This document shows positions 9,549-33,657 of a stretch of 64,000 nt of DNA, piece after piece. This stretch comes from an uncultured bacterium. GTDB taxonomy: Bacteria; Babelota; Babeliae; Babelales; Babelaceae. The stretch lies in the NCBI GenBank assembly GCA_963722385.1, contig CAVRKK010000002.1, positions 1,152,001-1,216,000 on the forward strand. The letters run 5' to 3'. A program made the translations under genes and the position numbers. The notes below the pieces were generated by a model. That model was given only the letters and a program-made list of their open reading frames with translations, did no database searches and was not told the DNA's origin. Numbering within the stretch: the stretch's first letter is position 1; every line of letters begins with the position of its first letter.

Positions 9549-12500
9549 ATGATTAAGTATATGAAACTGATAGCATTAATAGGCTGTTTTTTGATTATGC
9601 CTGCTTATGGAATGGAACGACCGAGAAGAAATAAGCTTTTTGAGTATTTAGAAAAGGGTGATGTAAAAAGTTTAAACACTTTTCTGAGCTATAAAAAATT
9701 GACAGATAGGCTTAATTTAAGCGTATCTGATAGTGCTGGCTGGCAACCAATCCACCATGCTATAAAGAGTGGCGATAGGGAAAAAATAAAGCTTCTTATC
9801 GAATATGGTGCAGATGTAAATGCGCAAATAAAAGATAGCCAGGGGGAGCGACCGTTGCACATAGCAGCTCGAGCTGGGAATGAAGAGATTATTCTCGATC
9901 TCGTAGCAGCAGGAGCTCAACCAGATTTGGCTGACAATAATGGAATATTGCCTATTTACTATGCTGGAAATATATTGCCTTTATTTGTTGATTCTCCAGG
10001 TAATTCAGTAAATATGCATTGTGCTATGGGGCATGAGTCATCAGAGGTAAATAGATTTATAAACTTGAGTAAGCACGTGAGCACTTTATCGATAAGTGAT
10101 CAGTTTCTATTGTTGAGTCCGGCAAAGAAGAATGAAAGACCAGAAAACGCTGATAAGCAGATAAAAAGAGAAACAGCAGCAGGCAAGCTTTCTAGTGAAG
10201 AATGCAATCAAAGGCTTCTTAATGCCCTTTTACGTGGTGACCTTGAAGAAGCGCAATTATTTTATGCGGAAGGAGCCAACGTAAATTTCCGAGATGCTGT
10301 TGGTAATCAGCCTGTACATCATATAGTAAATCAAGGTTTAATGCCGACTCTTGAATGGCTTCTTATGCATGGCGCAGACATAAATGCAAGAGACAGAGAT
10401 GGTAACAGACCGGTACGTATAGCGGCTCTTAGAGGGCATGTTCAAGTTGTACCATGGCTCATTAAGCAGGGAGCCAATCGTAATGATCAAGAAGATCAAA
10501 AGCAAAAGGTTGAGAAAGAAACAAGTCAGCATTTCTTTTCTGAGAATAATGTTTGTTCGTCATTGATCTCGGAAAATGAGGTAGAGAAGCAAAAAGAAAA
10601 GGAAAGAGAGGAATCTTCTAATCAGCCTACTCAGGAAGAACTTAATAATAGGTTATTGAGCGCGGCTCAAGCTGGCCGTTTATCTGAGGCAAAGAGTTTA
10701 GTTAATCAAGGTGCTCATGTTAATGCCCAAGATAATCGAGGCTGGCAGCCTCTACGCCTCGCTGCTCAATTTGGGCATTTAGAAGTAGTTAAATATCTTG
10801 TTGAACATGAAGCTTCCATCAATGCTCAAGATAATGATGGCAGACAACCTCTTCATTGGTCTGTTTTTAATGGGCATTTAGAAGTAGTAAAATGGCTTGT
10901 TGAGCATAACGCTGGTATCAATGCCCAAGATAATTCTGGCAAGCTTCCTCTCCATTACGCTGCCGGAAGAGGGCATTTAGAAGTAGTAAAATGGCTTGTT
11001 GAGCATGGTGCTGGTATCAATGCCCAAGATAATTCTGGCAGGCTTCCTCTCCATTCAGCTGCTCTCAATGGGCATTTAGAAGTGGTCAAATGTCTCGTGG
11101 AGCATGGTGCTCATGTTAATGCTGTAAATAGATTTAATCAAAGACCTATTGATGTAGCTGCTCAGAATAATAAGCAGAATATCGTTGATTGGCTTTCTAA
11201 AGTAGCTGAGAAAAAGGAGGCTAAAGAAAAAGAGCCTGAGAATGAAAGGGGGAATCATTCTCATCAGACTAGCCAGGAAGAACTTAACACGAGGTTATTG
11301 AGTGCTGCTCAAGCTGGCCGTTTGCCTGAGGTAGAACGTTTAATTAATCAAGGTGCTCATATTAATGCCCAAAGCCGTTTGGGCAGGCAGCCTCTCCATT
11401 CTGCTGTTTTTGGTGGGCATTTAGAAGTAGTCAAATGGCTTGTTGAACATGGCGCTTCCATCAATGCCCAAGATAAGCATGGATGGCGGCCTTTACATCT
11501 TGCTGCTCAAGAAGGGCATTTAGAAGTAGTAAAATGGCTAGTTGAACATGGTGCTACTATCAATACCCAAGGTAAGGACGGTAGGCAGCCTCTCCATTTT
11601 GCTGTTCTCCGCGGGCATTTAGAAGTAATCAAGTGGCTAGTTGATCATGGTGTTCCCATCGATGCGCAAGATAATGGTGGCTGGCAACCTCTTCATGTAG
11701 CTGCTAACCGCGGGCATTTAAAAGTAGTCAAATGGCTAGTTGATCAAAGCGCTGCCATCAATGCCCAAGATAAGCATGGATGGCAGCCTCTTCATGATGC
11801 TGCTTGTGGAGGGCATTTAGAAGTAGTAAAATGGCTAGTTAAACATGGTGCTACTATCAATACCCAAGGTAAGGACGGTAGGCAGCCTCTCAATTTTGCT
11901 GTTCTCCGCGGGCATTTAGAAGTAATCAAGTGGCTAGTTGATCATGGTGTTCCCATCGATGCGCAAGATAATGGTGGCTGGCAACCTCTCCATTCTGCTG
12001 CTTTTATAGGGCATTTAGAAGTAGTCAAATGGCTTGTTGAACGTGGCGCTTCCATCAATGCCCAAGATAAGCATGGATGGCAGCCTTTACATCTTGCTGC
12101 TCAAGAAGGGCATTTAGAAGTAGTTCAATGGCTTGTTGAACACGGTGCTTCCATCAATGCCCAAAATAATGGTGGCTGGCAACCTCTTCATGATGCTGCT
12201 TGTGGAGGGCATTTAGAAGTAGTCAAATGGTTGGTGGAGCATGGTGCTGATATTAATGCTGTAGATAGATTTGGTCTAAGACCTATTGATTTAGCTGCTG
12301 AGAGTAATAAGCAGAACATTGTTGATTGGCTTTCTAACGCTGCGAACAAAGGAGAGAGTAAAGAAAAATTGCCTGAGAAAGAAAAGGAGAGAGAAAGCTC
12401 TCCTACTCAGGAAGAGCTTAACAATAGGTTATTAAGTGCTGCTTACGCTGGCCGTTTATATGAAGTAGAGAGTTTAATTAATCAAGGAGCTAATACTAAT

Positions 12501-13655
12501 GCTCAAGATAATAATGGTATGCAGCCTCTCCATCGTGCTGTTTTTGGTGGACATTTAGAAGTAGTTAAATGGCTTGTTGAGCATGGTGCTTCCATCAATG
12601 TCCAAGGTATTTATGGCAGGCAGCTTCTCCATAGGGCTGCTTGGGGAGGGACTTTAGAAGTAGTCAAATGGTTAGTGGAGCATGGTGCTCCTATCAATAT
12701 CCAAGATAATAATGGTATGCAGCCTCTACATTGGGCTGCTTATGATGGGCATTTAGAAGTAGTTCAATGGCTTGTTGACCATGGTGCTTCCATCAATGCC
12801 CAAAATAAGACTGGCTGGCAACCTCTCCATTGGGCTGCTTATGATGGGCATTTAGAAGTAGTTAAATGGCTTGTTGAGCATGGTGCCGATATTAATGCTG
12901 TAGATAGATTTGGTCTAAGACCTATTGATGTAGCTGCTCAAAAGAATAAGCAGAATATTGTTGATTGGCTCTCTAAGGCTGCCGAGAAAGGAAAGAGCAA
13001 AGAAAAAGAGCCTGGGAAGCAAAAAGAGAAAGAAAAGAAAAATCATCCAAATCAGCCTACTCAAGAAGAGCTTAACAAGAGGTTACTCAATGCTGCTGCA
13101 GCTGGTCATTTATCTGAGATAGAGAGTTTAATTAATCAAGGGGCTCATGTTAATGCTCAAGGTAATGATGGCATGCAGCCTCTCCATTTGGCTGCTTTGG
13201 GAGGGCATTTAGAAGTAGTTAAATGGCTTGTTGAGCATGGTGCTTCCATCAATGTCCAAGGTATTTATGGCAGGCAGCTTCTCCATAGGGCTGCTTGGGG
13301 AGGGACTTTAGAAGTAGTCAAATGGTTAGTGGAGCATGGTGCTCCTATCAATATCCAAGATAATAATGGTATGCAGCCTCTACATTGGGCTGCTTATGAT
13401 GGGCATTTAGAAGTAGTTCAATGGCTTGTTGACCATGGTGCTTCCATCAATGCCCAAAATAAGACTGGCTGGCAACCTCTCCATTGGGCTGCTTATGATG
13501 GGCATTTAGAAGTAGTTAAATGGCTTGTTGAGCATGGTGCCGATATTAATGCTGTAGATAGATTTGGTCTAAGACCTATTGATGTAGTTGCTCAAAAGAA
13601 TAAGCAGAATATTGTTGATTGGCTCTCTAACATGATGGTTGAAAAGACCTCGTAA
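9549..13655 (+). CDS. Secreted modular ankyrin-repeat protein (1368 aa)
   Basis: Signal peptide; more than 25 33-aa repeats G.QPLH.A...GHLEVVKWLVEHGA.INAQD; GGAGG RBS at 9534-9538. Confidence 0.96.
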   Translation: MIKYMKLIALIGCFLIMPAYGMERPRRNKLFEYLEKGDVKSLNTFLSYKKLTDRLNLSVSDSAGWQPIHHAIKSGDREKIKLLIEYGADVNAQIKDSQGERPLHIAARAGNEEIILDLVAAGAQPDLADNNGILPIYYAGNILPLFVDSPGNSVNMHCAMGHESSEVNRFINLSKHVSTLSISDQFLLLSPAKKNERPENADKQIKRETAAGKLSSEECNQRLLNALLRGDLEEAQLFYAEGANVNFRDAVGNQPVHHIVNQGLMPTLEWLLMHGADINARDRDGNRPVRIAALRGHVQVVPWLIKQGANRNDQEDQKQKVEKETSQHFFSENNVCSSLISENEVEKQKEKEREESSNQPTQEELNNRLLSAAQAGRLSEAKSLVNQGAHVNAQDNRGWQPLRLAAQFGHLEVVKYLVEHEASINAQDNDGRQPLHWSVFNGHLEVVKWLVEHNAGINAQDNSGKLPLHYAAGRGHLEVVKWLVEHGAGINAQDNSGRLPLHSAALNGHLEVVKCLVEHGAHVNAVNRFNQRPIDVAAQNNKQNIVDWLSKVAEKKEAKEKEPENERGNHSHQTSQEELNTRLLSAAQAGRLPEVERLINQGAHINAQSRLGRQPLHSAVFGGHLEVVKWLVEHGASINAQDKHGWRPLHLAAQEGHLEVVKWLVEHGATINTQGKDGRQPLHFAVLRGHLEVIKWLVDHGVPIDAQDNGGWQPLHVAANRGHLKVVKWLVDQSAAINAQDKHGWQPLHDAACGGHLEVVKWLVKHGATINTQGKDGRQPLNFAVLRGHLEVIKWLVDHGVPIDAQDNGGWQPLHSAAFIGHLEVVKWLVERGASINAQDKHGWQPLHLAAQEGHLEVVQWLVEHGASINAQNNGGWQPLHDAACGGHLEVVKWLVEHGADINAVDRFGLRPIDLAAESNKQNIVDWLSNAANKGESKEKLPEKEKERESSPTQEELNNRLLSAAYAGRLYEVESLINQGANTNAQDNNGMQPLHRAVFGGHLEVVKWLVEHGASINVQGIYGRQLLHRAAWGGTLEVVKWLVEHGAPINIQDNNGMQPLHWAAYDGHLEVVQWLVDHGASINAQNKTGWQPLHWAAYDGHLEVVKWLVEHGADINAVDRFGLRPIDVAAQKNKQNIVDWLSKAAEKGKSKEKEPGKQKEKEKKNHPNQPTQEELNKRLLNAAAAGHLSEIESLINQGAHVNAQGNDGMQPLHLAALGGHLEVVKWLVEHGASINVQGIYGRQLLHRAAWGGTLEVVKWLVEHGAPINIQDNNGMQPLHWAAYDGHLEVVQWLVDHGASINAQNKTGWQPLHWAAYDGHLEVVKWLVEHGADINAVDRFGLRPIDVVAQKNKQNIVDWLSNMMVEKTS
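12552..13630 (+). repeat. Near-perfect 425-bp intragenic duplication (12552-12976 = 13206-13630)
   Basis: Offset 654 bp (218 codons); one C/T difference seen by eye. Confidence 0.9.
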
Positions 13656-20410: not shown

Positions 20411-21814
20411 CTATTGTTTATTTGCATTTTGCAGGGTATCAGCGAGCTTATTTACCTTGCCGGCGCCGAGTAATAAAATAAGATCGTCTTCTTGAACAAC
20501 GCCATCAAGTGCCTGCTGAATGCTTGCAAACTGCTCATCTTGAGGAATATAGGTGACCGATTGATCGGCTTTATTGGATTGAAGTTCCTGCGTTAGTCGT
20601 GCGCTCGTAATGGTTGGTATGGGCGCTTCGCTTGCGGCATGTATATCCGTTATGATCAAATGATCGATCGGATGGTGGGTGAGTACTTTAATAAAATCTT
20701 GCCAGAGGTGATAGGTGCGCGAATAGCGATGGGGTTGAAATATGACGATAAGCTTTCTTTTTGTGCGTTGTCGAGCAACTAAAAGGGTGTTATGTATTTC
20801 AACGGGATGGTGCCCATAATCGTCAAAAACATCAGCGCCTTTATAGGTTCCTTTAAAAGTAAACCGGCGATCGACTCCTTTGAAATTGGCAAGGGCTTGG
20901 GCGATGTTATGAAAAGGTACCTCGAGTTCTAATGACAGGGTTGTCGCGGCGAGGGCATTGAGGAGGTTGTGCCTGCCGGGCATCTTGACCATAAGGTTGC
21001 CTATATGCTTGTTTCCACGTGAGCGCCAGAGCGAGCAGGTGGTGTGCGTTGGATACAATTCAATATCATGGGCAAAGATATCTGCTTGCTGTGAAAGCCC
21101 GTACGTGATGGCTTTTGCATGACTGAGGGGAAGAAGCGAGCGGGCATGTTCATCATCGTGACAAATGATTGCTCTGCCATAAAAGGGCAGATTGCTGAGG
21201 AATTGCCTGAACGTTGCTTTAACGTCATCAAGATTGGTATAGGTATCAAGATGTTCACGGTCAACATTGGTTACGATGGCTATCGCCGGCGAGAGTCGGA
21301 CCAATGATCGATCACTCTCATCAGCCTCAGCTACCAAAAAGTCACCTCGGCCCAAGTGCGCATTGGTTGAGATACTTTTTAAGTGGCCGCCAATAATAAC
21401 GGTTGGATCATAGCCTGCTTCCATAAGCACGTGTGCTACGAGCGATGTCGTGGTTGTTTTGCCATGGGCACCTGCAATGGCGATGCTGTACTTCATGCGC
21501 ATGAGCTCTGCGAGCATTAATGCTCGCGGGATTGTAGGCAGCCCTAAACTCCGTGCTCGCATAATTTCTAGGTGGTCATCCTTGATATCAGAAGAATATA
21601 CGACGATATCAATTGAAGTATCATGGCATTGGGGAGTATTATTGCCCTTAGATACCGGACAGCCGAGCTGGGTCAAATCAACGACACTTTTTTGTTCAAG
21701 ATCTAGGTCGCAGCCCGAAATAATATATCCTTGATGCTTAAGAATTTTGGCGATACCACTCATGCCGATACCACCGATTCCGACAAAATGAATATGAGCT
21801 TTTTTATTGTACAT
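20411..21814 (-). CDS. murC: UDP-N-acetylmuramate--L-alanine ligase
   Basis: HFVGIGGIGMSG, GAHGKTTT, EADESD, DDYGHHP, FQPHRYSRT. Confidence 0.98.
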   Translation of the reverse strand: MYNKKAHIHFVGIGGIGMSGIAKILKHQGYIISGCDLDLEQKSVVDLTQLGCPVSKGNNTPQCHDTSIDIVVYSSDIKDDHLEIMRARSLGLPTIPRALMLAELMRMKYSIAIAGAHGKTTTTSLVAHVLMEAGYDPTVIIGGHLKSISTNAHLGRGDFLVAEADESDRSLVRLSPAIAIVTNVDREHLDTYTNLDDVKATFRQFLSNLPFYGRAIICHDDEHARSLLPLSHAKAITYGLSQQADIFAHDIELYPTHTTCSLWRSRGNKHIGNLMVKMPGRHNLLNALAATTLSLELEVPFHNIAQALANFKGVDRRFTFKGTYKGADVFDDYGHHPVEIHNTLLVARQRTKRKLIVIFQPHRYSRTYHLWQDFIKVLTHHPIDHLIITDIHAASEAPIPTITSARLTQELQSNKADQSVTYIPQDEQFASIQQALDGVVQEDDLILLLGAGKVNKLADTLQNANKQ

Positions 21815-21921
21815 GTTTTTATTGGTCTAAATGGCGCAAATGTAATGGTTGTCAATTAAGTGTATACCAGATTTTTCATGTGCTCAACAAGCCTTTTAAC
21901 GCTCACGATGATTTTGAGGGC

Positions 21922-22236
21922 TTAAGACCCTGGAAAGCGTTGCCGTGAAAAAAAGGATAGAACATCATTTTCCTGAATTGAATAATCCTTTAATGTTTTG
22001 TTATCGTCTAATACTATACCTTTAAAAGCAAGCCGTTGGGCATCTACGGGAACCTCCTGAAGGCCTTGTATTATTTGCTGTGCTTCGAGAGCTTTTTTGA
22101 CCATGTTAATGGTAGCTGATGGTGGTATATCTAATTTTAGCTCAGGTCCCTCTATATATTTGATAACAACGGGCATTGATAAGGCCGGGCTGGCGAAAAA
22201 AATAATTAATAATGACAGAGCGAGAAAAAGCTTCAT
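21922..22236 (-). CDS. Secreted eukaryote-like ubiquitin-domain protein
   Basis: AGGAG RBS; 20-aa signal peptide, then MPVVIK...PSATINMVK...PVDAQRLAFKGIVLDDNKTLKDYSIQENDVL aligns with ubiquitin PSDTIENVK...[31 protein letters not shown]. Confidence 0.92.
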   Translation of the reverse strand: MKLFLALSLLIIFFASPALSMPVVIKYIEGPELKLDIPPSATINMVKKALEAQQIIQGLQEVPVDAQRLAFKGIVLDDNKTLKDYSIQENDVLSFFSRQRFPGS

Positions 22237-22517
22237 CGCAATTCTCCTTTTTTAAACTTATGAGATAAATACAAAATAATATTATCACGTTGAGCATTTC
22301 AGCCGCAATGGTTTTGATTGCGCGAGATCAATATATTTGCTAGCAGGCCTTAAGCTCTACAGCGGTCTTAAAAAACCGTGGGCAACAATCTGCTACCTCT
22401 CTTAATCAACGGCCTATTTTTAAGAGTTATTTTCAAGATATAAGGATGTCACCGGTCAATCGTTGCATAAACTGAAGTGATAGGGCGCTTTGTCTGATAG
22501 CATCTCAATTTTAGACC

Positions 22518-22570: not shown

Positions 22571-22825
22571 ATGAACAATAAACATAAACGTACTCTAGAA
22601 AGCATCTTTAGGCTACCTACACAAACCTCTATTAAGTGGAAAGATGTTGAATTATTGTTTATACATTTAGGAGCCAAAGCGACTGAAGGAAACGGCTCGC
22701 GAATACGTGTGATACTAAATAAGGTTCCAGCAAACTTTCATAGACCGCATCCACGCCGTGAAGCAACTCAAGGTGCCATTGAAGCAGTACGTAGGTTTTT
22801 AAAAGATGCAGGAGTTAAAAAATGA
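22571..22825 (+). CDS. hicA: HicA-family toxin
   Basis: IKWKDVE.LF..LG...EGNGSR...FHRPHP. Confidence 0.92.
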   Translation: MNNKHKRTLESIFRLPTQTSIKWKDVELLFIHLGAKATEGNGSRIRVILNKVPANFHRPHPRREATQGAIEAVRRFLKDAGVKK

Positions 22826-23145
22826 TTGAATATAAAGGATATAAAGGAATAATTACCTACGATAGTAAATTAAAAGTTTTTCATGGGGATGTTATAGGAT
22901 TGCGACACGTTATCACCTTTGAAGGAACAAATCCTGAAGAAATTGAGAAATCTTTTAAAGAGGCTATCGATGATTATCTTGATATGTGCAAACAAGAAGG
23001 TATAAAGCCTGAAAAAACTTTCTCAGGAAAGTTCATGATAAGGATTTCTCCTAATCTTCACGCTGAACTTTTTAGCGCAGCGAAACAAAACAAAAAAAGT
23101 TTAAATTTATATATAGCAGAGGCGTTAAGCGCAAGACAAAAATAA
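22822..23145 (+). CDS. hicB: HicB-family antitoxin
   Basis: YKGY.G...FHG.V.G...VITFEG...FSGKF..RI...LH...SLN; ATGA overlap with hicA. Confidence 0.93.
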   Translation: MIEYKGYKGIITYDSKLKVFHGDVIGLRHVITFEGTNPEEIEKSFKEAIDDYLDMCKQEGIKPEKTFSGKFMIRISPNLHAELFSAAKQNKKSLNLYIAEALSARQK

Positions 23146-23196
23146 ATATCTATGCGCTACTAATCTAATGATTTTATACTTATCGTAAAAAAGATA

Positions 23197-23452
23197 TTGG
23201 CTACTTCTCAAGATTGTAGTAAATGCCATCTACGAGGTAATCGCCAGGGTAAATTATTTAAGTGTCCTCATTGTAGGCACGTTGATCATGCTGACGTAAA
23301 TGCTTCATTCAACATAGCTATGCGTCATGGGCAGAGATCAATTGGACGCAGACAGAGTTGCGTTCAACGGGCTCACTGAAATCCCTAAAAGGGCTACGCT
23401 GCTTGAATGACCGCGACCCTAGAACCTCCGGCTTTTAAGCCGGCGTTATTCA
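23197..23452 (+). pseudogene. tnpB: TnpB C-terminal remnant with IS605-type right end
   Basis: TSQDCSKC...[18 protein letters not shown] (zinc ribbon plus RuvC-III), followed by hairpin CCGGCTT-TT-AAGCCGG and TTCA. Confidence 0.85.
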
Positions 23453-23460
23453 GTCGATGT

Positions 23461-23650
23461 ATCCCACAGCGTTCCTCAAGCTATAGTACCCATGCTCACC
23501 TTGATATACCATATGTGGAAAGGTGCTTTGTAGAGTTAGTCTGGAGCAGCCACTCGTGAGACGCTGTGTTTTACTGCGACATATTAACCGTTCAGGCTCG
23601 TCCGAACTTGGGTTTTCTTTCAAGCGACCTCAAACGACGAACCAGGGGCA
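23461..23650 (+). ncRNA. Candidate 6S RNA
   Basis: ~190-nt non-coding rod-like fold: CCC..GTTC pairs with GAAC..GGGG, ACCCA with TGGGT, CCTTGA imperfectly with TCAGG, unpaired central bubble; judged by eye only. Confidence 0.4.
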
Positions 23651-23805
23651 ATAATCTGCAACAGAGATAGCTGTGTCCTGTTTTACATAAAATATTGCTA
23701 TTAGTATGCAAAAATTGTTATAATTTACGCAAGTTGGGTAATCATATCTTACCTCAGCATTGGTTTTTCAAGTACATTTTATTGTCATATTAAATAGGAG
23801 TAATC

Positions 23806-24765
23806 ATGAATAAATTTGCGAAACTGCTTATTTTAGGTTTAATTCTAGCGAGTATCGGAAATCTTGCAAAGGCTCAAGAAAAGGCTATGGATCTAGCTTG
23901 GCATACGCTACAAGAAACATACAAAAAAGAGGGAATGAAAGGAATTGCGACCGATGTCATTAAAGCTTCCTGGGACTGGACCAAAAGTTCTACGGTCGTT
24001 ATTGTAGAAAATGCAAAAAAAGCAGTAAACTACACTATTGCCGAGCTTCCGTCAGATATACGTGAGATCGCCGAGCTTATAACACCAGAAGAAAAAGAAC
24101 AACTGCAAACGGCACTCGAGAGTGCAAAAAATCAATCTATTGCTGTTAATATCAAGGTGGCGCAATATTTTGGCTTGCCGCAGGACGTAATGGCAGGTAT
24201 TTTGATAGCTTCAGGATTGGTAGGTCTACGTGCGGCGGTTCCGCCACTTGTCCGCGCTATCCCAATGGTGCCTTATGCCGTTCAGTATGGTGCGCTTGCT
24301 GGTGGGACATATGCCGTAGGCAAAGCCATTTTACCATATGTTCCCTATATGCCTTTCCTAGCGTCGAACGTTGACGTAAAGCAAGTATTTTCTAGCGTAA
24401 AAGATGCGATTGTTTCAGCAAATGAAAATATAGCAAATAAACTAAGCCTTTCACCTTATGCCACCGGCTTATTAGGAGTAACCTTGGCAACGGCAGGGGC
24501 TGGATGGATGTACCGTACAGCTGCTACCACCTTGCGTTGGGCGCGAAATGGCGTCTATCTAGCGCTTGCTTGGCCATTGTTCCAATATTCCTATAGTTTT
24601 GCACAAGAGGCATATAGCAGGTTGAGTGCACAGCGTCTTTCAAAAGCACAAGCGCAAGCGCTTGTTGATGAAGCAAATAGGCTTGCTGATCGATCAAGCC
24701 AAGTAGCAAAAACCCTTGCTGCCGATGTTGCGCAGGAAGCTGCCGTTCTTAAAACAGAATTATAA
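23806..24765 (+). CDS. Hypothetical secreted/membrane protein
   Basis: AGGAG RBS, signal peptide, several Gly/Ala-rich hydrophobic helices. Confidence 0.8.
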   Translation: MNKFAKLLILGLILASIGNLAKAQEKAMDLAWHTLQETYKKEGMKGIATDVIKASWDWTKSSTVVIVENAKKAVNYTIAELPSDIREIAELITPEEKEQLQTALESAKNQSIAVNIKVAQYFGLPQDVMAGILIASGLVGLRAAVPPLVRAIPMVPYAVQYGALAGGTYAVGKAILPYVPYMPFLASNVDVKQVFSSVKDAIVSANENIANKLSLSPYATGLLGVTLATAGAGWMYRTAATTLRWARNGVYLALAWPLFQYSYSFAQEAYSRLSAQRLSKAQAQALVDEANRLADRSSQVAKTLAADVAQEAAVLKTEL

Positions 24766-24783
24766 GGTAATCTTAAGTTCGAA

Positions 24784-24808
24784 GCTCCAGTAATAAGCTG
24801 GGGCTTTT
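24784..24808 (+). terminator. Rho-independent terminator
   Basis: GCTCCAG-taataag-CTGGGGC-TTTT between convergent genes. Confidence 0.7.
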
Positions 24809-24825
24809 GAACGCTACTTAGGTGA

Positions 24826-25203
24826 TTATTTTCTTTCTAGACGAGTATCAATATATTCGTCAATAAGCTGGTTTAAAGATTTTGATCGTCTTGTTGCTTC
24901 GCGTGCTAACAAATAGTGCCTGCGGCTTGTTGTACGGTAGGCAATATTTCCTTTAAATTGCTTTTCATCAATTGGCTCGGGAACTATCTCGCCATGTTTG
25001 ATATAAAGTTCAAAGGTAGCGATCATAGCTTCTTTGATAGCTTCCATTCCTTCTGCAATAGTGAGTGCATCAGTGCTTATACCCGGTAGCTCGTTAACAT
25101 GTATGATATAATAAGGCTTATCTTGATCTTTTGCTGTTTCAATGGTGTAAGTCCAGGGAAGCTGCAAATAATATTGTATATTCTTTTTTTTGTTAGTAAC
25201 CAT
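24826..25203 (-). CDS. hicB: HicB-family antitoxin (second module)
   Basis: YY..LPW...ELPG..T...EAM...G..VPEP...FKG...H..L..EA...SLNQ. Confidence 0.9.
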   Translation of the reverse strand: MVTNKKKNIQYYLQLPWTYTIETAKDQDKPYYIIHVNELPGISTDALTIAEGMEAIKEAMIATFELYIKHGEIVPEPIDEKQFKGNIAYRTTSRRHYLLAREATRRSKSLNQLIDEYIDTRLERK

Positions 25204-25807
25204 GTTTAATAAGCACCTCTTTTAAAAGCTTTACTTGATAAGTAACGCGAATTCGATCTAAGCCGGTAAGCCAAAAAAAAGAAAATCGCTTGCGAGAGAG
25301 GGCTTTTTTTGCCTAAATGAGTAAGCAACTAAGGCAGAAAAGATGGAGTACAATAATAATCTTTAAACGTTTTACAACTCAGAATAATGATAATAAATCA
25401 TAATGGTCATAATCTCGCAGAGTCGCATTCTACTCTTTCTTTTTCGCTTTTTTCACCTTGCAGAGCCGCCAAACAGCCATTTTTTTCAAGGTCTTTGCAA
25501 AAGTTTGCAACGTGGTAAAATATTGTGACGAGCATTGTCGTTTCTCCTTTTTTTGTTGAATTTTGAAAAAAGGATAGTACTTTGCTCGTTTTTTTCTACT
25601 TTTTCTTACGTCGAACTCGCGTTAAGTAAGTAGTTCAGGCCTTTTTTTTAACGATACATGAAGTTCGAATCCTGCTTTCTTAAAAATATGATGAGATCCT
25701 CTCATATGTAGGTTAAATCCAAGATTCAACAAAAGCTTTTCAGCTTCATCGAAGGAAACCGAGGAATAGTTATATATCTTTCTTATAATTTTTTCTTTAT
25801 CGCCCAT
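25193..25807 (-). pseudogene. hicA: HicA-family toxin split by mini-IS982
   Basis: Removing 25245-25622 and one TAAGTA copy restores MGDKEK...GSHHIF...RPELLTYQVKLLKEVLIKHGY*. Confidence 0.9.
25245..25622 (-). mobile_element. Internally deleted IS982-family element (378 bp)
   Basis: Terminal IRs ACGCGAATTCGATCTAAG / CTTACGTCGAACTCGCGT; 6-bp TSD TAAGTA; transposase relics MLVTIFYHVANFCK and SALVAYSFRQKKPSL. Confidence 0.88.
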
Positions 25808-25824
25808 ATTGCTACCTCTTAAAC

Positions 25825-25853
25825 ATGATATCAAATTAGATATCGTGTGGCAA
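25825..25853 (-). promoter_or_regulatory. Sigma70 promoter and palindromic operator of hicAB-2
   Basis: TTGCCA-N17-TATCAT on minus strand, overlapped by GATATC-N6-GATATC. Confidence 0.65.
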
Positions 25854-25871
25854 AGATTTTGGCGTCAAAGG

Positions 25872-27119
25872 CAGGGCCGGCTCATCTAAATTTGATTGAC
25901 AATTAATTCCAAAGTGCTAGGTTGCCAGCAAGACAGCTTTCGAAGACATTTGATACTGATGTACTTATCAACCAATGGCTGGGCTCGTTTGAGCAAGTTA
26001 AGCGCCAAACTTTTGATGGTCGCTACATTTTGAGGAGCATTACCTTTTCGAATTCTCGATTGATCATCATTAAAGCAAACATCGAGTACCCAATGCATCG
26101 AATTCTCTATTAACCAGTGACTTCTTGCGGCGCGCAATATTCTTTCTGCTGATGCAGGAATACTTGTTATGTAGTAACGTTTTTCTATAGTCTTATTCTT
26201 ACCAATCAATCGCTCTGATTGTATACAGGCAATGCTCTTTATTGAGACCCAATCATTTTTTTTAGAAAGCCAGCCTATTTGATCGGTTGTTGTACAAGTC
26301 CTAATCTCAATTCGACCATGCCCTTTTTCTGTTTCTGAAAATGTATCATGCTTAATATTGATATATTTTGATTCGCTTTCTATTTCAAAGAAAGTTTTTA
26401 TTTCTTCAAGAAGATCACCTTGATTGCCCTTTACATTAAGCAAATAATCCCCTTTTTTGTCAATAATCTTTTGAGCAATTTTTTTCTGGGTCCCTATTGC
26501 ATCAATCGTCACTATCGCATCGCAGATATCAATTAAGTCCAAGAGCTGCGGGATAGCCGTTATTTCATTCGATTTTCCTTCTACCTTTTTTTGACAAAGG
26601 ACCATTCTAACATCTGTCGCAAATGCATTGACTAGATAAAGAGGCTCTTTATCTTCTGTTTCACCCTGATCAAACTTCTTTTTGTCACTTTCCCATCTAT
26701 GGCTACTGTTCTTGCATCATCAGTGTCTCTGTTATCCCTTACTGATGCTACTAAATCGCTTACCCATTTTACAAATATTTTAGAAAACTCATTAGGATCA
26801 AGTGCTCTAAAAAATCTCCTTAACGTATCATCGCTTGGTACCCCATTTTCAAATGGTAGATACTTTTTAAGTACGTCTAATCGAGCTTTTCCGTAGTATT
26901 CGATATCTTTCCAACCCTCGCACCCACTTATAACCCCTACCAGAGTTAAAAAAAGAATATCTGCCATTGAATGCAGTTTTCCTCTTTCAATTCTTGGGTC
27001 TTCTAGTTCACCTATATAATCCAAAAAACTAATATTTCTGTCTTCCATCTTGGTTCTCCCGGTTTTTTTTGAGAACCATTATATCTTAGTTTTTTAATTT
27101 TTTAAGTGAGCCGGCCCTG
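25872..27119 (-). mobile_element. ISAs1-family IS, copy 1 (frameshifted transposase; ORFs 26632-27048 and 25886-26605)
   Basis: IRs CAGGGCCGGCTCA; 10-bp TSD GCGTCAAAGG; motifs DPR, AIDGK, SNEI, DAIG, KGNQ, HGRIE, HW.IEN..HW.LD. Confidence 0.96.
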
Positions 27120-27127
27120 GCGTCAAA

Positions 27128-28589
27128 GGGTGCAATTAAAAGTGGTGGTTAGCAAATATCGTATGTTTTATGTGCTTCCCAATAGCCATTCCAACCATTA
27201 TTCGCTCTTGTAGTTAGCATTGCAAGCATAAATTGGCATTTTCTTCACACCACCAACCGCCAGGAATTTTAAGACGTTTTTGTATAACCGACTTATGAGC
27301 GCCCTCTATCTCTCCTGATCCAATCGACAAATCTCGTTCAAGAGCTCCTTTGTAATCGAATTGCTTCATCCTTTTGATCATGTATTGATAGCACTTTTGG
27401 GCTCCACATTGATGTTTTGGTATTTTTGTTTCATCAAGATGGTTTTTTAGATTTTTTAAAACAACATCAAGTTTATTTTCTTTCATCAATTTTTGTTGAA
27501 CATGAAACCAGTTTATCGAATTGTTTGGGAAACAGCACAATGAAGCTTGATTCAGATATTGGCTCAAGTGATAATAGTCTATTAAGTAATTGGCATCGTC
27601 ACCAAAGACCTTCTCGATTTGTTCTGCTATCCATAGCGCGCCATCACCTAGAGCATGAATACGCGTTTTAGGTCCACGGTTAGCATCTCTGACGAGCTCT
27701 GCGAGCTGATCGCCTACCTCATCGGGCGATCCTAATGTTGCTCGATAAAAAGTAGTTGTACTTCCTTTGTGATAAGCCAGTGCAAGTCGAGCTTCGCGCC
27801 ACAATGTCTTCCGGGACTTTCTTCTGTCACCAGTATTTTTTGGATCAAAAGTTACTATAGGAATCATACTTCCATCAGATTCTGCAATCACGAATTCTGC
27901 TGGCTTTTTCACAACTTTTTTTGCTTTAGGGGCACCTTGGTTCTTTGCCATGTTGTATGCATGTTTTTCTACAATTAATCTGATCGTGCTTGCAGGCAAC
28001 TCTATCCCATAGTGCTCTTTCATTTTTTTTGATGCAGATTCAAAGGAGACGTCTGTTTCAAAATCAGAAATATAGCGAGATTCTTTAAGTGATGCACGAA
28101 TATGGCATTATAGCTTTGTGCTGAGATTAAAATGCTCGGCATAGTGAGCATGGCTTAATGCATTACGCTATAGCACGCTGCAACGGCATCGAATACCCTC
28201 GACATTTGACGTTTGCTGAATAAGCAAGAGGCCTTGTACGCCTTCCTTGACTAACCAAAATTCGTTCTTTAATTTCTACAGTCCCGTAGGTAGTTTGCCA
28301 TTCAAGTTTTTTTTGAATGAAGCTTTGAATCAGGGTTGTTCAATCTGGTGGCTTGGTGTTTCTTTTCTTCTTGGTTTGTTGCCCATGTGGTCAGTAATTT
28401 ATTGCCTATTTTTCTAATTTCCACAATCAATTGCTCTTCTGCATCATCAGCTCTGTCAAGTCTGCCTGACGAGTTTTCTGCTATTTCCAATAATGCTTCA
28501 ATCCGGGATTCCAAGTGTGGATATTTTTCTAATCGTTTTACTTGTTGCTTAAATCTCGTCAAGATTTACCCACACTTTTGTTTACACCC
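27128..28589 (-). mobile_element. ISKra4-family (UPF0236) IS, degenerate, copy A
   Basis: IRs GGGTGCAATTAAAAGTG / CACTTTTGTTTACACCC; DGSMIP, GDGALWI, IDYYH, IGSGEIEGAHK..RLK..G.WW; upstream orf 28302-28562. Confidence 0.9.
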
Positions 28590-28672
28590 CCTGCCTTTTT
28601 TGATTTTGACTTTGAATAAAATATTTTCTAAAATGGAAGTCATTTCAAAGAAGACTGCATTGGGAGTAATTT

Positions 28673-31600
28673 ATGTCCGCTTATTATCTTAAGTATTTTT
28701 TATTAGGCATCTTGTTTTTATGTACTACTCAGTTGCAAGCAGTACTCTGCAGGCTGACAGGGACAAGTTATGCTTCGTCTGCTCAATTAGATCCAACTTC
28801 TGTAGCTTTTTCTCCTAATGGTTCTTATGCGGCTACCGCTAACGGGGGCTCAGATGGTGTAACATTATTTACGATAGGAGCTGGAGGCGTGGCGAGCAGC
28901 CAAAATTCGTATGCATTGCCAAGCGGCTCAAGTGCCCCTATCTCAGTAGCATTTTCACCTGATGGGTCTTATCTTGCTACCGCTAATTTTGAGTCAAATG
29001 ATGTAACGGTATTTCAGGTAGGAGCTGGTGTACTATCAGAGGCAACATCATATGCACTACCAAGTGGTTCTTCAGATCTTTATTCAGTAGCGTTTTCACC
29101 TGATGGGTCTTATCTTGCTACTGCTAATATTGGGTCAAGTGATGTAACGATATTTCAAGTAGGAACAGGAGGAATGTTATCAGGAGCAATTTCTTATACA
29201 TTACCAAGCGGTTCTAGCGGTCCCGCTTCGGTAGCATTTTCACCTAATGGGTCGTATCTTGCTACTGCTGACTACGGCAATTATAGTTATGGTGGTGGAA
29301 CTACAGTAACAATATTTCAAGTAGGAACAGGGGGAACTTTATCAGGAGCAATTTCTTATACATTATCAAGCGGTTCTAGCGGTCCTGGCTCAGTAGCATT
29401 TTCACCTAATGGGTCGTATCTTGCTACTGCTGACTACCGTGATAATGATGGAATTACAGTAACGATATTTCAGGTAGGAGCGGGAGGAGTGTTATCGGGA
29501 GCAGTGTCATATGCATTACCAAACGGTTCTACTGGTCCTTATTCAGTAGCGTTTTCACCCAATGGTTTATATCTCGCTACTGCTAATTATTCAGGTAATA
29601 TAACAATATTTCAAGTAGGAACAGGAGGAGTGCTATCGGGAGCAGCGTCATATGCATTGCCAATCGGTTCTAACTCCCCTTTATCAGTAGCATTTTCACC
29701 CAATGGAGCCTATCTCGCTACCGCTAATGAAGGGTCAAATGATGTCACCATATTTCAGGTAGGGGCTGGCGGAGTATTATCGGGAGCAGTGTCATATGCA
29801 TTGCCAATCGGTTCTAACTCCCCTTTATCAGTAGCATTTTCACCCAATGGAGCCTATCTCGCTACTGCTAATCTTGACAGTAATGTAACAATGTTCCAGG
29901 TAGGAGCGGGAGGAGTGTTATCGGGAGCAACATCCTATGCATTACCAAACAGTTATTCTGTCCCTTACTCAGTAACATTTTCACCAGATGGATTCTACCT
30001 TGTTACTGCTAATAGCAGCTCAAATGATGTAACGATATTTCAGGTAGGAGCGGGAGGAGTGTTATCGGGAGCAACATCGTATACTTTGCCAAGTGGTTCT
30101 AGCGATCCTTGGTCTGTGGCCTTTTCACCGGATGGGTCATATCTTGCTACTGCTAATAGCAGCTCAAATGATGTAACGATATTTCAGGTAGGAGCGGGAG
30201 GAGTGTTATCGGGAGCAGTTTCATATGCATTACCAAGTGGTTCTGGTGGCCCTCAATCAGTAGCATTTTCACCCAGTGGCTCATATCTTGCTACTGCTAA
30301 CTACGATTCAAATGATGTAACAATATTTCAGGTAGGAGCAGGAGGAGTGCTCTCGGGAACAACTTCTTATGCATTACCAAGCGGTTCTTCCGTACCTGTT
30401 TCGGTAGCCTTTTCACCTAATGGATCTTATCTTGCTACTGCTAATAGTTATAACCCTGGAGATGTAACACTATTTCAAGTAGGAGCAGGAGGAGTGCTAT
30501 CAGGGGGAATATCGTATGCATTACCAAGCGGTTCTACCTATCCTTATTCAGTGGCATTTTCACCTGATGGCTTATATCTTGCCACAACAGGCTCAAACAA
30601 TGTAACAATATTCCAGGTTGGAGTAGGAGGTATTCTAACAAGACCAGCTTCCTACGCTTTGCCTGGTGGCTATAGCCGTCCTGTTGCAGTAGCATTTTCG
30701 CCCAACAGCTTGTATCTTGCTAGCGCTAATAACGATCAATTCTTCTTCGCGTATAGCAACAAAATAGTTACCATTTTTAACTGTGGCAGTTTTTCAAGCA
30801 CCTTTACGTCGGTTTCTTTACCTCCAGACTCTAAAAATCCAGCGGCAGTTACTTTTTCCAACAATGAACAGTATTTAGCAACAGCAAACCAAAACTCAGA
30901 TGATGTAACTCTTTTTCAAATAAACCCAGTTAATGCTACAAAACTTCTCTCTCTTGGAGTATCGTACCCATTGCCAATAAGCTCGCTTGGCCCCGTAGGA
31001 ATTACATTCTCGCCAAACAGTATATACCTTGCAACAGCAAACAGTAACTCAAGTGACGTAACTCTTTTTAAAGTTTCAGGAGGACAGTTAGCAGGAGCAA
31101 GCTCTTACGCGTTACCAGGTGGTTCTATAAACCCTCATGCCATTGCCTTTTCTTCCGACAATAACTACCTCGCCACAGCGAACAGTGGTTCAAATGACGT
31201 CACCCTTTTTAACTTTGTAGCAGGAATTCTCAACAATCCTCTTTCCTATTCTTTACCAATTAACTCTACTCAGCCAGTGGCGTTAACCTTTACGCCAGAT
31301 AATAGCCATCTGGTTACCGCAAATGCTCGATCATACGATGTAACTCTTTTCAAATTAACAAATGGCATACTCAGCAACGGCATGTCAAAGCCACTGCCAA
31401 AAATATCATCAGTGCCTAGTTCTGTTGTCTCGTTCGTAGATACTAATGAAAATACCGTTATTGTTGTTGCTAATAGTGGCTCCGATGATATTACGCTCTT
31501 TGCTATTGTTGGTGGCGCTTTATCAGAAGGACAATCACGCCAAATAGCCCAAGGCAATGCCCAGCCAGGATCCATTAGTCTGTCAGCCGATGGTTCTTTT

Positions 31601-32029
31601 CTTGCAACCAGCAATAGTGGCTCTGACACGATCGCTCTCATTGAATTGTCAAAAGACGCTGTTTTGGGAAATCGTACGACGCATATTTTACCTGGCAATT
31701 CTACCTACTGTGTATCAATAGCTTTCTCTCCAATTCTTTCAGACACGGGAAATGCTCTCCTTGCTACTGCCAACTTCTACTCCGACGATGTATCAATCTC
31801 CCAAATTTTTGGATCAAGCAGCACGGGAGGATATTCAGGAGATGGTAGTGGTAGCTCTCCTAATATTGGCATCATCATAGGGCCTATTATCGGTGGTGTT
31901 GGCGCTTTAACAGGCGTTGTGATAATTGGCATAGCCGCTTACTTTGCCTGGAAGTACTTTACTCGCCATCGTGGTAGAGGTAGCGTTAATTACTCGCCAG
32001 ATGTAGCACCTGTGGGACAAGAGTTATAA
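28673..32029 (+). CDS. Single-pass membrane protein with 21 beta-propeller blades (lactonase/WD40-like)
   Basis: Signal peptide; 14 near-identical ~46-aa repeats YALPSGS..P.SVAFSP.G.YLATAN..S.DVTIFQVG plus 7 divergent ones; Gly/Ser linker; TM helix; short tail. Confidence 0.93.
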   Translation: MSAYYLKYFLLGILFLCTTQLQAVLCRLTGTSYASSAQLDPTSVAFSPNGSYAATANGGSDGVTLFTIGAGGVASSQNSYALPSGSSAPISVAFSPDGSYLATANFESNDVTVFQVGAGVLSEATSYALPSGSSDLYSVAFSPDGSYLATANIGSSDVTIFQVGTGGMLSGAISYTLPSGSSGPASVAFSPNGSYLATADYGNYSYGGGTTVTIFQVGTGGTLSGAISYTLSSGSSGPGSVAFSPNGSYLATADYRDNDGITVTIFQVGAGGVLSGAVSYALPNGSTGPYSVAFSPNGLYLATANYSGNITIFQVGTGGVLSGAASYALPIGSNSPLSVAFSPNGAYLATANEGSNDVTIFQVGAGGVLSGAVSYALPIGSNSPLSVAFSPNGAYLATANLDSNVTMFQVGAGGVLSGATSYALPNSYSVPYSVTFSPDGFYLVTANSSSNDVTIFQVGAGGVLSGATSYTLPSGSSDPWSVAFSPDGSYLATANSSSNDVTIFQVGAGGVLSGAVSYALPSGSGGPQSVAFSPSGSYLATANYDSNDVTIFQVGAGGVLSGTTSYALPSGSSVPVSVAFSPNGSYLATANSYNPGDVTLFQVGAGGVLSGGISYALPSGSTYPYSVAFSPDGLYLATTGSNNVTIFQVGVGGILTRPASYALPGGYSRPVAVAFSPNSLYLASANNDQFFFAYSNKIVTIFNCGSFSSTFTSVSLPPDSKNPAAVTFSNNEQYLATANQNSDDVTLFQINPVNATKLLSLGVSYPLPISSLGPVGITFSPNSIYLATANSNSSDVTLFKVSGGQLAGASSYALPGGSINPHAIAFSSDNNYLATANSGSNDVTLFNFVAGILNNPLSYSLPINSTQPVALTFTPDNSHLVTANARSYDVTLFKLTNGILSNGMSKPLPKISSVPSSVVSFVDTNENTVIVVANSGSDDITLFAIVGGALSEGQSRQIAQGNAQPGSISLSADGSFLATSNSGSDTIALIELSKDAVLGNRTTHILPGNSTYCVSIAFSPILSDTGNALLATANFYSDDVSISQIFGSSSTGGYSGDGSGSSPNIGIIIGPIIGGVGALTGVVIIGIAAYFAWKYFTRHRGRGSVNYSPDVAPVGQEL

Positions 32030-32399
32030 AAGTTTCATGAGGTTAGCATCGCCTTACCTATGCGTATATTGTGTCGCCTATAGGAGGCAGGTGCTGCTAG
32101 GGCCCGGCCCGAGGTGTCCTGCATTGTCGTGGTTGTTGCGCTAGGCAAATACAAAAAGAGCTTTTTTAACGCTTATTCTCTTAATAAAGTTGGTTAACTA
32201 AAATGTCTTTGAGCTATGCCTGTTAAGATATCGCCAAGCATTTCGATATTATTCATGGATAGTTTAGATTTACCTGCCAAAATCTTTTTCCAGGCTTGAA
32301 TACAGTTATCTAAAGAAACTATGGTATAAGGTGGGCAATCGAGGTAAATATACTCGTTGTTAAGATTCTCAAGGTACTAATTCAGGAGCACCAGGAATA

Positions 32400-32500
32400 G
32401 TGCTTACACCATTTAAAAGCAGCAATCCTATTATACATAACGCTGGTCAAGCAAATGCTGTAGCTGTACAAAAGGATGGTAAAATCCTTCTTGCAGGATC
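32400..32500 (+). pseudogene. Fragment of a delta-60-repeat protein gene
   Basis: QANAVAVQKDGKILLAG, joined directly to transposase relic. Confidence 0.6.
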
Positions 32501-33657
32501 AAGATGTGAGCTAATAGAAACATGGGGAATGGAGCAAGAAAAGCAAAAAGCAGATGAAGCGCAGCTGAATAATTCGCAGCTGAGACGACATTCAAAAAAA
32601 ATTATACTGGCAAATAAAATGTGGCCAAGTAACAGTTAAAGAAACGATATTTATCGAAAACGGCAAAGTAAGAAGGCTTTTTTCTGAATCAGCGCGAGTA
32701 ACCTGTAGGGGTATTCAGGGCCATTACAGCGGTATTGGTAGACTTTGGCGCAGATGTGTCATTTGCTGATGCTGCCAAAAAAAATCAAAGAGCATTATGG
32801 CATCGATATTCCAGCAAGTAGTATCAGGCTTATTGTAGAAAAGCATGCATATGAAATGGCGCAATCAAACAATAATCCAGTAAACAATAAGTAGGTTCAG
32901 AGCATATCATAGGAAAATTGGATGGTAGTTCCAATAGTAACAATTGGACAAGCTGAAGATAAAAGAAAAGCGCAAAAAACAGGATGGCAAGAAGCAAGGT
33001 TATCACTTGCATACGCAAAAGGAAGTATATCGCCTATATACCGAGCAACATTGGGCTCGACTGATGATGCTGGTAATCAGCTAGCAGAAGTTGTTGATGC
33101 AGCCGGAAGGAACGAATCAACTTGCATACACATCGTAAGCGATGGTGCGCCATGGATAGCGGAGCAGGTTGAAAGAGTCATTGGAAGCTCAGCGTATTAT
33201 CTAATAGACTTTATCATCTAAGTACATATCTGAGCGAAGCGGCGAATTGCTGCGCCCCATCGGAAAAAGATAGTTGGCTTAAGCTAAAACAAGCTCTTGT
33301 TAAAGAAAACAAAGCCGAATTGATCATACAAGAGCTTGAAGAGCATATAAAACAAGATCAGGAAGGTTCTCATATCTGTGGTGTTAAAACATGCTATCAG
33401 TACATGATAAAGCGCATGCATCAACTTGATTACCAAAGCGTGCTAGCATCCGATCTGCCAATTGGATCAGGAAGCATAGAAAGCGCGCATAAATCTATTA
33501 TTCAGAAGAGGCTTAAGCTTTCAGGCGCCTGGTGGCTAGAATGCAACGCGTAGGCTATGCTTTCTATGCGTACTGCTCGAGCTAACGGCGCTTGGAACAG
33601 TTACTGGGCACAGCGCTCTCCTAGCTCTCGCTTTCACTAACACTTTTGTTTGCACCC
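32500..33657 (+). mobile_element. ISKra4-family IS, degenerate and 5'-truncated, copy B
   Basis: WQEARLSLAY, SDGAPWI, LPIGSGSIESAHK..RLKLSGAWW; several frameshifts; terminal CACTTTTGTTTGCACCC. Confidence 0.9.

Follow-up and report, generated by a model that had tools for sequence, protein, structure and literature searches.

A predicted exported ubiquitin-like protein without the C-terminal di-glycine in a Babelota genome

The open reading frame and its locus

The stretch of DNA analysed here (the window) comprises 64,000 nucleotides, positions 1,152,001 to 1,216,000 of contig CAVRKK010000002.1, of a Babelaceae genome (G000; 1.6 Mb, 93% complete). Its ribosomal protein L19 has its relatives in Babelota, a phylum of protist parasites also named Dependentiae or TM6. 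On its reverse strand, positions 21922–22236 hold an intact open reading frame of 104 codons, whose 104-aa product we refer to as P0001. A ribosome-binding site, AGGAG (22244–22248, reverse strand), can be recognized in the sequence 7 nt 5′ of the ATG. The product starts with a predicted Sec signal peptide (residues 1–20; 22177–22236, reverse strand), which ends in Ala-Leu-Ser and is followed by Met, and continues as a mature ubiquitin-like domain of 84 aa (21925–22176, reverse strand), assigned to the β-grasp fold by profile, alignment and predicted structure. Using a dicodon model built in this analysis, we obtained a score of 0.18 for this frame, compared with medians of 0.20 for genes of 80–150 aa and −0.09 for non-gene ORFs. 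Dicodon use is thus gene-like, while GC content is 38% against 43% for the genome and GC3 lies at the 17th percentile. The AGGAG site, the native-type signal peptide and the gene-like codon use appear to show that the gene has been domesticated. With the intact frame and the Pfam match described below, these features also bear out the earlier note on this DNA in taking the ORF, its signal peptide and its ubiquitin-like mature chain to be real.

The gene is not an assembly artefact, because the exact protein is present in several sources (NCBI, Logan and ENA) and a second assembly encodes the same mature chain. The protein from that assembly, P0002, differs from P0001 in only three residues, all within the signal peptide, which may reflect either sequencing error or a non-exported allele. 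Logan contigs from two studies, one of which may be the source of the assembly, span parts of the ORF with zero differences; none of the Logan contig pieces shown bridges the tail junction discussed below. No RNA source containing P0001 is listed, and a promoter and terminator scan near the gene returned chance-level results.

The 20-aa signal peptide, and with it the probable export proposed earlier, was recovered both by inspection and by our own heuristic. The earlier note had also pointed to the Met at the position of ubiquitin M1. This Met is present directly after the signal peptide, but it is typical of the lineage rather than special: a small residue followed by Met and by Glu, Asp, Gln or Asn occurs at residues 15–30 in 64 of 368 signal-peptide-like soluble proteins of this genome versus 12 of 936 others (shuffles: mean 9.6, maximum 18), and small residue-Met alone is found in 93 of the 368. 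These counts rest on our own gene calls and our own signal-peptide heuristic, according to which 417 of 1328 proteins of this genome have signal-peptide-like starts. Met at +1 therefore looks like a genome-wide signal-peptide habit, not specific to P0001. Across the genome Met-Glu follows many signal peptides, often as M-E-x-P (e.g. window 9549–13655, forward strand), and the small residue-Met-[EDQN] pattern after the signal peptide also recurs in 15 of the 41 ORFs of the phylum set described below. N-termini of the eukaryotic cytosolic type could matter for N-terminal acetylation or for escape from N-degrons. Mature proteins starting with Met-Glu could resemble eukaryotic cytosolic proteins, or mark an export route. 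In Chromulinavorax, 44% of proteins carry signal peptides according to the available part of its description (PMC6561590).

The conserved neighbour on the downstream side is murC (20411–21814, reverse strand). On the other side lies a variable island (22571–33553) that reaches towards a yidC-like gene at 34009; murC and the yidC-like gene stand in order in G000 with this 12-kb island between them, and the island is absent from the corresponding place in the congener G009. It contains hicA/hicB pairs, DDE and UPF0236 transposase genes and a secreted WD40 propeller. Two hicA/hicB-type pairs lie within 22571–28514, together with more transposase fragments, a 250-bp repeat of which three other copies exist, and a DDE transposase that is split into two ORFs and has six or more near-identical copies at other places of the genome. 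Secreted WD40/lactonase-like propeller repeat proteins are encoded at 28673–32029 (forward strand) and 47884–49164 (reverse strand) and belong to a large family with many genomic paralogues.

The 3′ end of the gene has a second copy in the genome. The last 13 codons and the stop (21922–21962, reverse strand), encoding the second half of strand 5 and the tail without GG, belong to a block that continues through the murC upstream region and the first murC codons (21763–21921, reverse strand; ~84% identity to the second copy). As a whole, window positions 21763–21962 are 84% identical to positions 554482–554683 of contig C2 of the same genome, where the copy is non-coding, stands behind a gene for a 332-aa protein and ends in a decayed murC start. 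In G009 the orthologue of the 332-aa gene lies 93 bp upstream of murC; the rest of the 30 family loci yielded none, and by eye about 19 of the 30 have a MerR-like gene upstream of murC instead. G009 also has a MerR gene near murC, for which no counterpart was found in G000. A 22-bp motif overlaps the start of the shared block and also precedes the 332-aa gene, these being its only two copies at up to four mismatches. The 332-aa gene itself (L275, C2:554482–555802) has no Pfam match, looks hydrolase-like by eye, has an imperfect 22-bp direct repeat on either side and stands upstream of ftsQ-ftsA-ftsZ-like genes.

Two histories of this end may be considered. The simplest, which we regard as somewhat probable, would be that the ubiquitin-like (UBL) gene landed here and took its 3′ end from old intergenic DNA. 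Of open intergenic frames, 13.5% show at least two identities to ubiquitin over positions 68–76, the number P0001 has. In the reverse history, the copy at 554k would be what is left of a UBL gene that was duplicated and decayed, which requires one further deletion. In its favour, only 0.57% of such frames have Arg at both 72 and 74, as P0001 does, and in the predicted model strand 5 is well completed by the tail. Selection may have retained the tail even if it was captured. The earlier note described the end as LRLRGG turned into SRQRFPGS; the absence of GG stands, but with a non-coding second copy of its last 13 codons in the genome, descent of the tail from LRLRGG is open to doubt. We made no use of a hairpin within the 554k copy, whose z was −2.7 over a short window picked afterwards and −1.1 over a longer one.

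A diverged ubiquitin-type domain

P0001 matches the ubiquitin profile PF00240 with 52 bits (E = 6e−14; curated cut-off 25.4) and is the sole PF00240 match in the genome. Rad60-SLD (E = 1e−8) and the rad23 model (E = 3e−10, far below that model's cut-off) match as well. Residues 21–99 align with ubiquitin end to end with a single 6-residue gap, as had been claimed; the corresponding insertion of about 6 residues lies at the end of helix 1 (22057–22074, reverse strand), its placement varying by aligner (the helix spans 23–36 in the model). Identity to ubiquitin amounts to 28 of 76 positions, 26 of them within positions 1–67 and two within 68–76. At 19 positions which we take to form the ubiquitin core, 12 residues are identical and 18 similar, compared with 16 identities at the remaining 57. 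The substitutions described earlier (I44 to Ala, K48 to Ile, K63 to Glu, no GG) are all correct in the alignment, where G75F/G76P, L8I, H68S and V70F are seen in addition; R42, R72, R74, K6 and K27 are kept. Positions 75–76 are Phe-Pro, the chain ends in Gly-Ser, and the mature chain contains no cysteine. The I44, I36 and F4 patches are all altered, with the I44 face (Ile8, Ala44, Ile48, Val49, Phe70) reshaped but not polar.

AlphaFold run with a 51-row alignment returned a β-grasp model with pLDDT of 91, whereas the single-sequence model (pLDDT 55) was discarded. Superposition on ubiquitin gives TM ~0.8 and Z ~15, and among solved chains ubiquitin and its variants come closest (36–38% identity, Z ~15), followed by OASL, Dsk2, Rad23 and SUMO, a ranking that is partly circular because the alignment is rich in ubiquitins. 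Fold and profile are thus of the ubiquitin type, and together with the missing ThiS match in the genome and the lack of a terminal glycine they led us to reject a ThiS/MoaD identity, raised earlier as one of the ways in which the assignment could fail.

ThiF, Prok-JAB and ThiS had no match in this 93%-complete genome in profile searches whose positive controls matched; UQ_con (E2) likewise had none, although its control also matched nowhere. The statement of the earlier note that no E1, E2 or JAB genes are nearby can therefore be extended to the genome, for E2 with a silent control. We rejected a bacterial Bil/Bub-type conjugation system for the lack of a ThiF, JAB partner or UQ_con match in the genome and of a terminal glycine. 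From the GG-less tail and the missing conjugation enzymes it follows that P0001 is predicted to be non-conjugatable as a type I modifier.

To what extent these changes are unusual can be judged from other eukaryote-type UBL domains. Among the 530 domains in the matches of a search of representative sequences, 117 domains from 43 proteins are 30–45% identical to ubiquitin; 13 of them retain I44, 40 K48 and 6 K63, while a single one is followed by GG. Loss of I44, K48, K63 and GG is ordinary for UBL domains this diverged, and the donor domain may never have had GG. Of the ubiquitin mimic proposed earlier, the true ubiquitin fold without GG stands, but the patch and lysine losses are not distinctive at this divergence. 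By sequence, P0001 conforms to the definition of a type II UBL, that is, a UBL fold without GG whose core is kept and whose surface is free to change. Like P0001, type II UBLs (Rad23, Dsk2, UBL4A, OASL, diverged tandem repeats; VIA Z 12–14.6) combine the β-grasp and a kept core with a changed surface, and they act through non-covalent binding, as stated in the accessible text of PMC11354881. In contrast to P0001, a stand-alone bacterial protein predicted to be exported, they are cytosolic eukaryotic domains, mostly within larger proteins, and the identity of P0001 is still highest to ubiquitin itself rather than to them. MUB/UBL3 proteins are likewise small, GG-less ubiquitin folds, and their non-covalent inhibition of the cascade (as described in part of PMC4996978) offers a working model for the mechanism proposed below. 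We nevertheless rejected a MUB/UBL3 identity: MUBs have an expanded α2–β5 lap-bar loop and a CaaX box (PMC4996978), whereas in P0001 that loop has ubiquitin's length, the insertion lies at helix 1, Cys and CaaX are absent and PF13881 gives E = 0.076, under its cut-off.

In an unconstrained tree, P0001 pairs with a GG-less tandem UBL repeat (support 99/94) and is separated from a Babelota clade described below, but an AU test does not reject joining the two (p = 0.286). This tree of 72 columns has long branches and references chosen by their likeness to the query, and it names no donor. The phylogenetic check suggested earlier thus places the protein beside a eukaryote-type tandem repeat while leaving its separation from other Babelota sequences weakly resolved. 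The probable acquisition from a eukaryote, also proposed there, agrees with the profile, structure and tree comparisons, which all point to a eukaryote-type domain.

The precedent named in the earlier note was BfUbb of Bacteroides fragilis, which has a counterpart, BoUbb, in B. ovatus (PMC3352274, PMC5705921, PMC11467351; PDB 8hm3). In these proteins, as in P0001, a signal peptide directly precedes a eukaryote-type ubiquitin fold without C-terminal GG, no own E1 or E2 is present, and the gene has a patchy, low-GC location. However, BfUbb is 63% identical to ubiquitin (PMC3352274, as far as its available text goes) with E1-contact residues kept, and the BUbbs are ~60% identical to ubiquitin and to each other, whereas P0001 is 37% identical to ubiquitin and 30% to BfUbb (8hm3_A). 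BfUbb has a C-terminal disulfide; P0001 has no Cys and carries the 6-residue insertion. Their producers are also different, a gut anaerobe and an intracellular protist parasite, respectively. The precedent therefore holds for the architecture only; membership in the BUbb family was rejected on the missing disulfide and the two identities, and 30% identity to BfUbb points to a probable independent capture.

Ubiquitin-like proteins across Babelota and beyond

At E = 0.001, PF00240 matched 23 of the 261 Babelota genomes, of which 14 exceeded the cut-off and one was a false match, and a profile built from 14 small members (signal peptides and P0001 included) matched 26 of 261. From 30 PF00240 loci and 16 new loci of the second profile we took 26 and 15 ORFs, respectively; L009, L017, L020 and L176 were dropped for want of a clear start, and L026 duplicates L016. 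Of these 41 ORFs, 38 look exported (24 of 25 among those picked by PF00240 alone), with start codons of relatives chosen by us in a way that favours signal peptides. None of the 38 ORFs with a visible C-terminus ends in GG, and three others run off their locus. After removal of three false or weak rows (L022, an S49 peptidase; L169 and L171, too weak), 38 ORFs remain, and exported GG-less UBL proteins occur in 31 of the 261 genomes.

These proteins differ widely in their distance from ubiquitin. In genome G232, two exported tandem paralogues (L002:1372–2379 and L024:1141–2229) carry internal domains with 56/70 and 52/72 identities to ubiquitin (~72–80%). The exported protein of G144 (L003:1417–1989), 43/76 identical, has GG at positions 75–76 followed by a C-terminal extension, so that a host deubiquitinase (DUB) might cleave it; its ORF is one of the three that run off their locus. 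Several Babelota UBL domains sit within longer proteins. At the other end stands a clade of 20 stand-alone signal peptide–UBL proteins, mostly of 110–150 aa, with an aromatic insert after strand 3 (support 95/89). This insert of ~10–16 residues is absent in P0001. The family has dN/dS of 0.20, 0.24 and 0.31 in three of six pairs, the other three being saturated, and appears to be under purifying selection. It reaches up to three copies per genome in several Babelota families (L006, L011, L012, L014, L018, L023, L025, L027, L030, L154–L156, L161–L165, L167, L175). An orthologue of P0001 was found in none of 40 members of its family, so selection on it is not measurable; three other Babelota genomes match at 25–42% identity.

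Close relatives of P0001 were restricted to the near-identical P0002. The representative search was dominated by multi-domain polyubiquitin-like proteins. A metagenome scan gave nine loci, all distant or short matches, some of which resemble Rad23 or Ddi1 UBLs by eye, and two ESM Atlas searches, both scored under 0.9, gave leads only. None of 24 candidates from the viral scan and no phage matched P0001. The plasmid scan had one match, a Ruminococcus albus plasmid gene annotated as a ubiquitin family protein and 36% identical to P0001 (L276:2432–3172). Among 80 ubiquitin loci of viral contigs (L186–L265), complete GG is missing in 18, most of which end right after R74. In the literature covered we found no paper on Babelota ubiquitin-fold proteins; some might be listed in the annotation tables of PMC4378268 or PMC4776705, or among the homologues collected in PMC11467351.

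Possible functions

All cultured Babelota members infect protists, according to the part of PMC12172432 available. A type II secretion system has been reported for TM6 (PMC4776705, PMC4378268) and is the sole secretion system described for Babela (PMC4378268), again from partial texts; the two secretins of G000 match this system. The same source lists secreted C19 DUBs as well as F-box, RING and Ulp1-like proteins in Babela, and we found F-box matches in 49 of 261 Babelota genomes. Effectors of amoeba-associated bacteria that act on the ubiquitin system (those of Babela and the chlamydial F-box/BTB proteins; PMC4378268, PMC4209131, both in part) would resemble P0001 in being eukaryote-derived, exported, aimed at host ubiquitin and subject to gene birth and death, but they are enzymes or ligase adaptors and P0001 is a ubiquitin fold. 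In the available portions, PMC4209131, PMC11696984 and PMC4776705 name no ubiquitin-fold effector, nor does PMC4378268 for Babelota.

We tentatively favour, as the leading of several candidate explanations, that P0001 is a UBL binding module which is delivered to the host, is not conjugatable and has been reshaped at its surface. Its origin would lie in the capture of a eukaryote-type UBL domain, probably a type II repeat already without GG, to which a native signal peptide was joined. Together with the two secretins, this signal peptide suggests that the protein is exported by Sec and might be released into the protist through the type II secretion system or vesicles. There it would bind non-covalently through the still-hydrophobic face around positions 8, 42, 44, 48, 49, 70 and 72 and would occupy or redirect one host protein that reads ubiquitin or UBLs (DUB, E3 or proteasome receptor), a target predicted from the fold, the lifestyle and the other ubiquitin-system effectors of the phylum. 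The surface seems too diverged for a general ubiquitin decoy, and the reshaped hydrophobic I44 face, which may be likened to engineered ubiquitin variants, presumably suits one partner better than general mimicry. The kept fold and core under a changed surface and the phylum-wide occurrence of exported GG-less UBLs argue for such a module. Against it, the I44 patch used by canonical readers is altered, the tail is possibly an accident of rearrangement, the gene has no orthologue, and the genome itself has no F-box, F-box-like or C65 match (the F-box-like control matched nowhere).

The same tail makes a relic the next candidate, if a rather unlikely one. A formerly longer signal peptide–UBL–cargo effector, or a GG-ended ubiquitin, would have been cut in strand 5 at the edge of the island and would now read into old intergenic DNA upstream of murC, still folding but having lost its job. 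This would account for the non-coding second copy of the last 13 codons and murC upstream region, for the 332-aa gene whose orthologue lies near murC in G009 alone, for the two-copy 22-bp motif and for an identity over positions 68–76 that many intergenic frames reach, and it accords with UBL domains embedded in longer Babelota proteins and with an orphan gene beside IS elements. The pair of arginines at 72 and 74 is harder to obtain by chance and the modelled strand 5 is complete; the ORF, ribosome-binding site and signal peptide are intact, and a captured tail may be selected. No longer fused form was found among 516 candidates, which is a weak test. Improbable, to our mind, is a decoy on host ubiquitin enzymes as put forward in the earlier note, in which R42, R72 and R74 would dock P0001 where ubiquitin sits on USP-type DUBs or on the host E1, and Phe-Pro at the Gly-Gly positions, neither activated nor cleaved, would make it a competitive inhibitor. 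In ubiquitin these three arginines serve recognition by E1 and DUBs. All three are kept, the protein is predicted to be non-conjugatable, ubiquitin and its variants are its closest solved relatives, and BfUbb inhibited ubiquitination in HeLa extract (PMC3352274, available part). BfUbb, however, has 63% identity to ubiquitin against 37% for P0001, in which each of the I44, I36 and F4 patches is altered and a Cys that could form the disulfide proposed to link BfUbb to E1 is missing; if the tail was captured, R72 and R74 may have arisen by chance. Moreover, host ubiquitin is abundant, so a weak competitor would do little.

Two further readings leave the host aside. The UBL fold might serve the bacterium itself as a small, stable periplasmic or surface protein, which we consider more doubtful still: a Sec signal alone reaches only the periplasm, and delivery to the host cytosol is reported for no Babelota protein in the portions of the literature covered, but the patchy, orphan distribution and the island location fit housekeeping poorly, and the domain is of eukaryotic type. 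Least likely of all is the antibacterial toxin suggested earlier, which would enter competing bacteria and block a periplasmic PPIase in the manner of BfUbb. The architecture is similar, BfUbb and BoUbb are proven antibacterials in the accessible text (PMC5705921, PMC11467351), the former killing B. fragilis (PMC5705921), and protist cells can hold competing symbionts. But the C-terminal disulfide is crucial for BfUbb and its uptake requires the Bacteroides transporter ButCD (PMC11467351, in part); P0001 has no cysteine, is closer to ubiquitin (36–38%) than to BfUbb, and belongs to an intracellular parasite.

Returning to the binding module, a wider and more speculative extension, to which we give only limited credence, is that Babelota repeatedly capture host ubiquitin folds, add signal peptides and diversify the surfaces into selective non-conjugatable binders, each for one DUB, E3 or proteasome receptor. 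The phylum would then display a gradient from the near-exact copies of G232 through P0001 to the old aromatic-insert family. If true, these proteins would form a class of effectors that mimic the modifier and not its enzymes; among known bacterial effectors acting on host ubiquitination, ligases, adaptors and DUBs prevail, and the exported ubiquitin folds of proven function in the literature covered are the Bacteroides antibacterial toxins. Host-directed mimicry would thereby extend to the modifier, with natural counterparts of engineered ubiquitin-variant inhibitors. UBL proteins are small and easily expressed, so that function can be tested without culturing the bacterium. The phylum-wide exported repertoire is more interesting than the orphan P0001, which, having no orthologue and possibly an accidental tail, lends itself less well to testing than the conserved family or the near-exact G232 and G144 copies. 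Alongside these exported proteins there is a small UBL-like family (L005 of G012, P0152, P0155–P0158) without a classical signal peptide, whose basic N-terminal extension looks organelle-targeting by eye.
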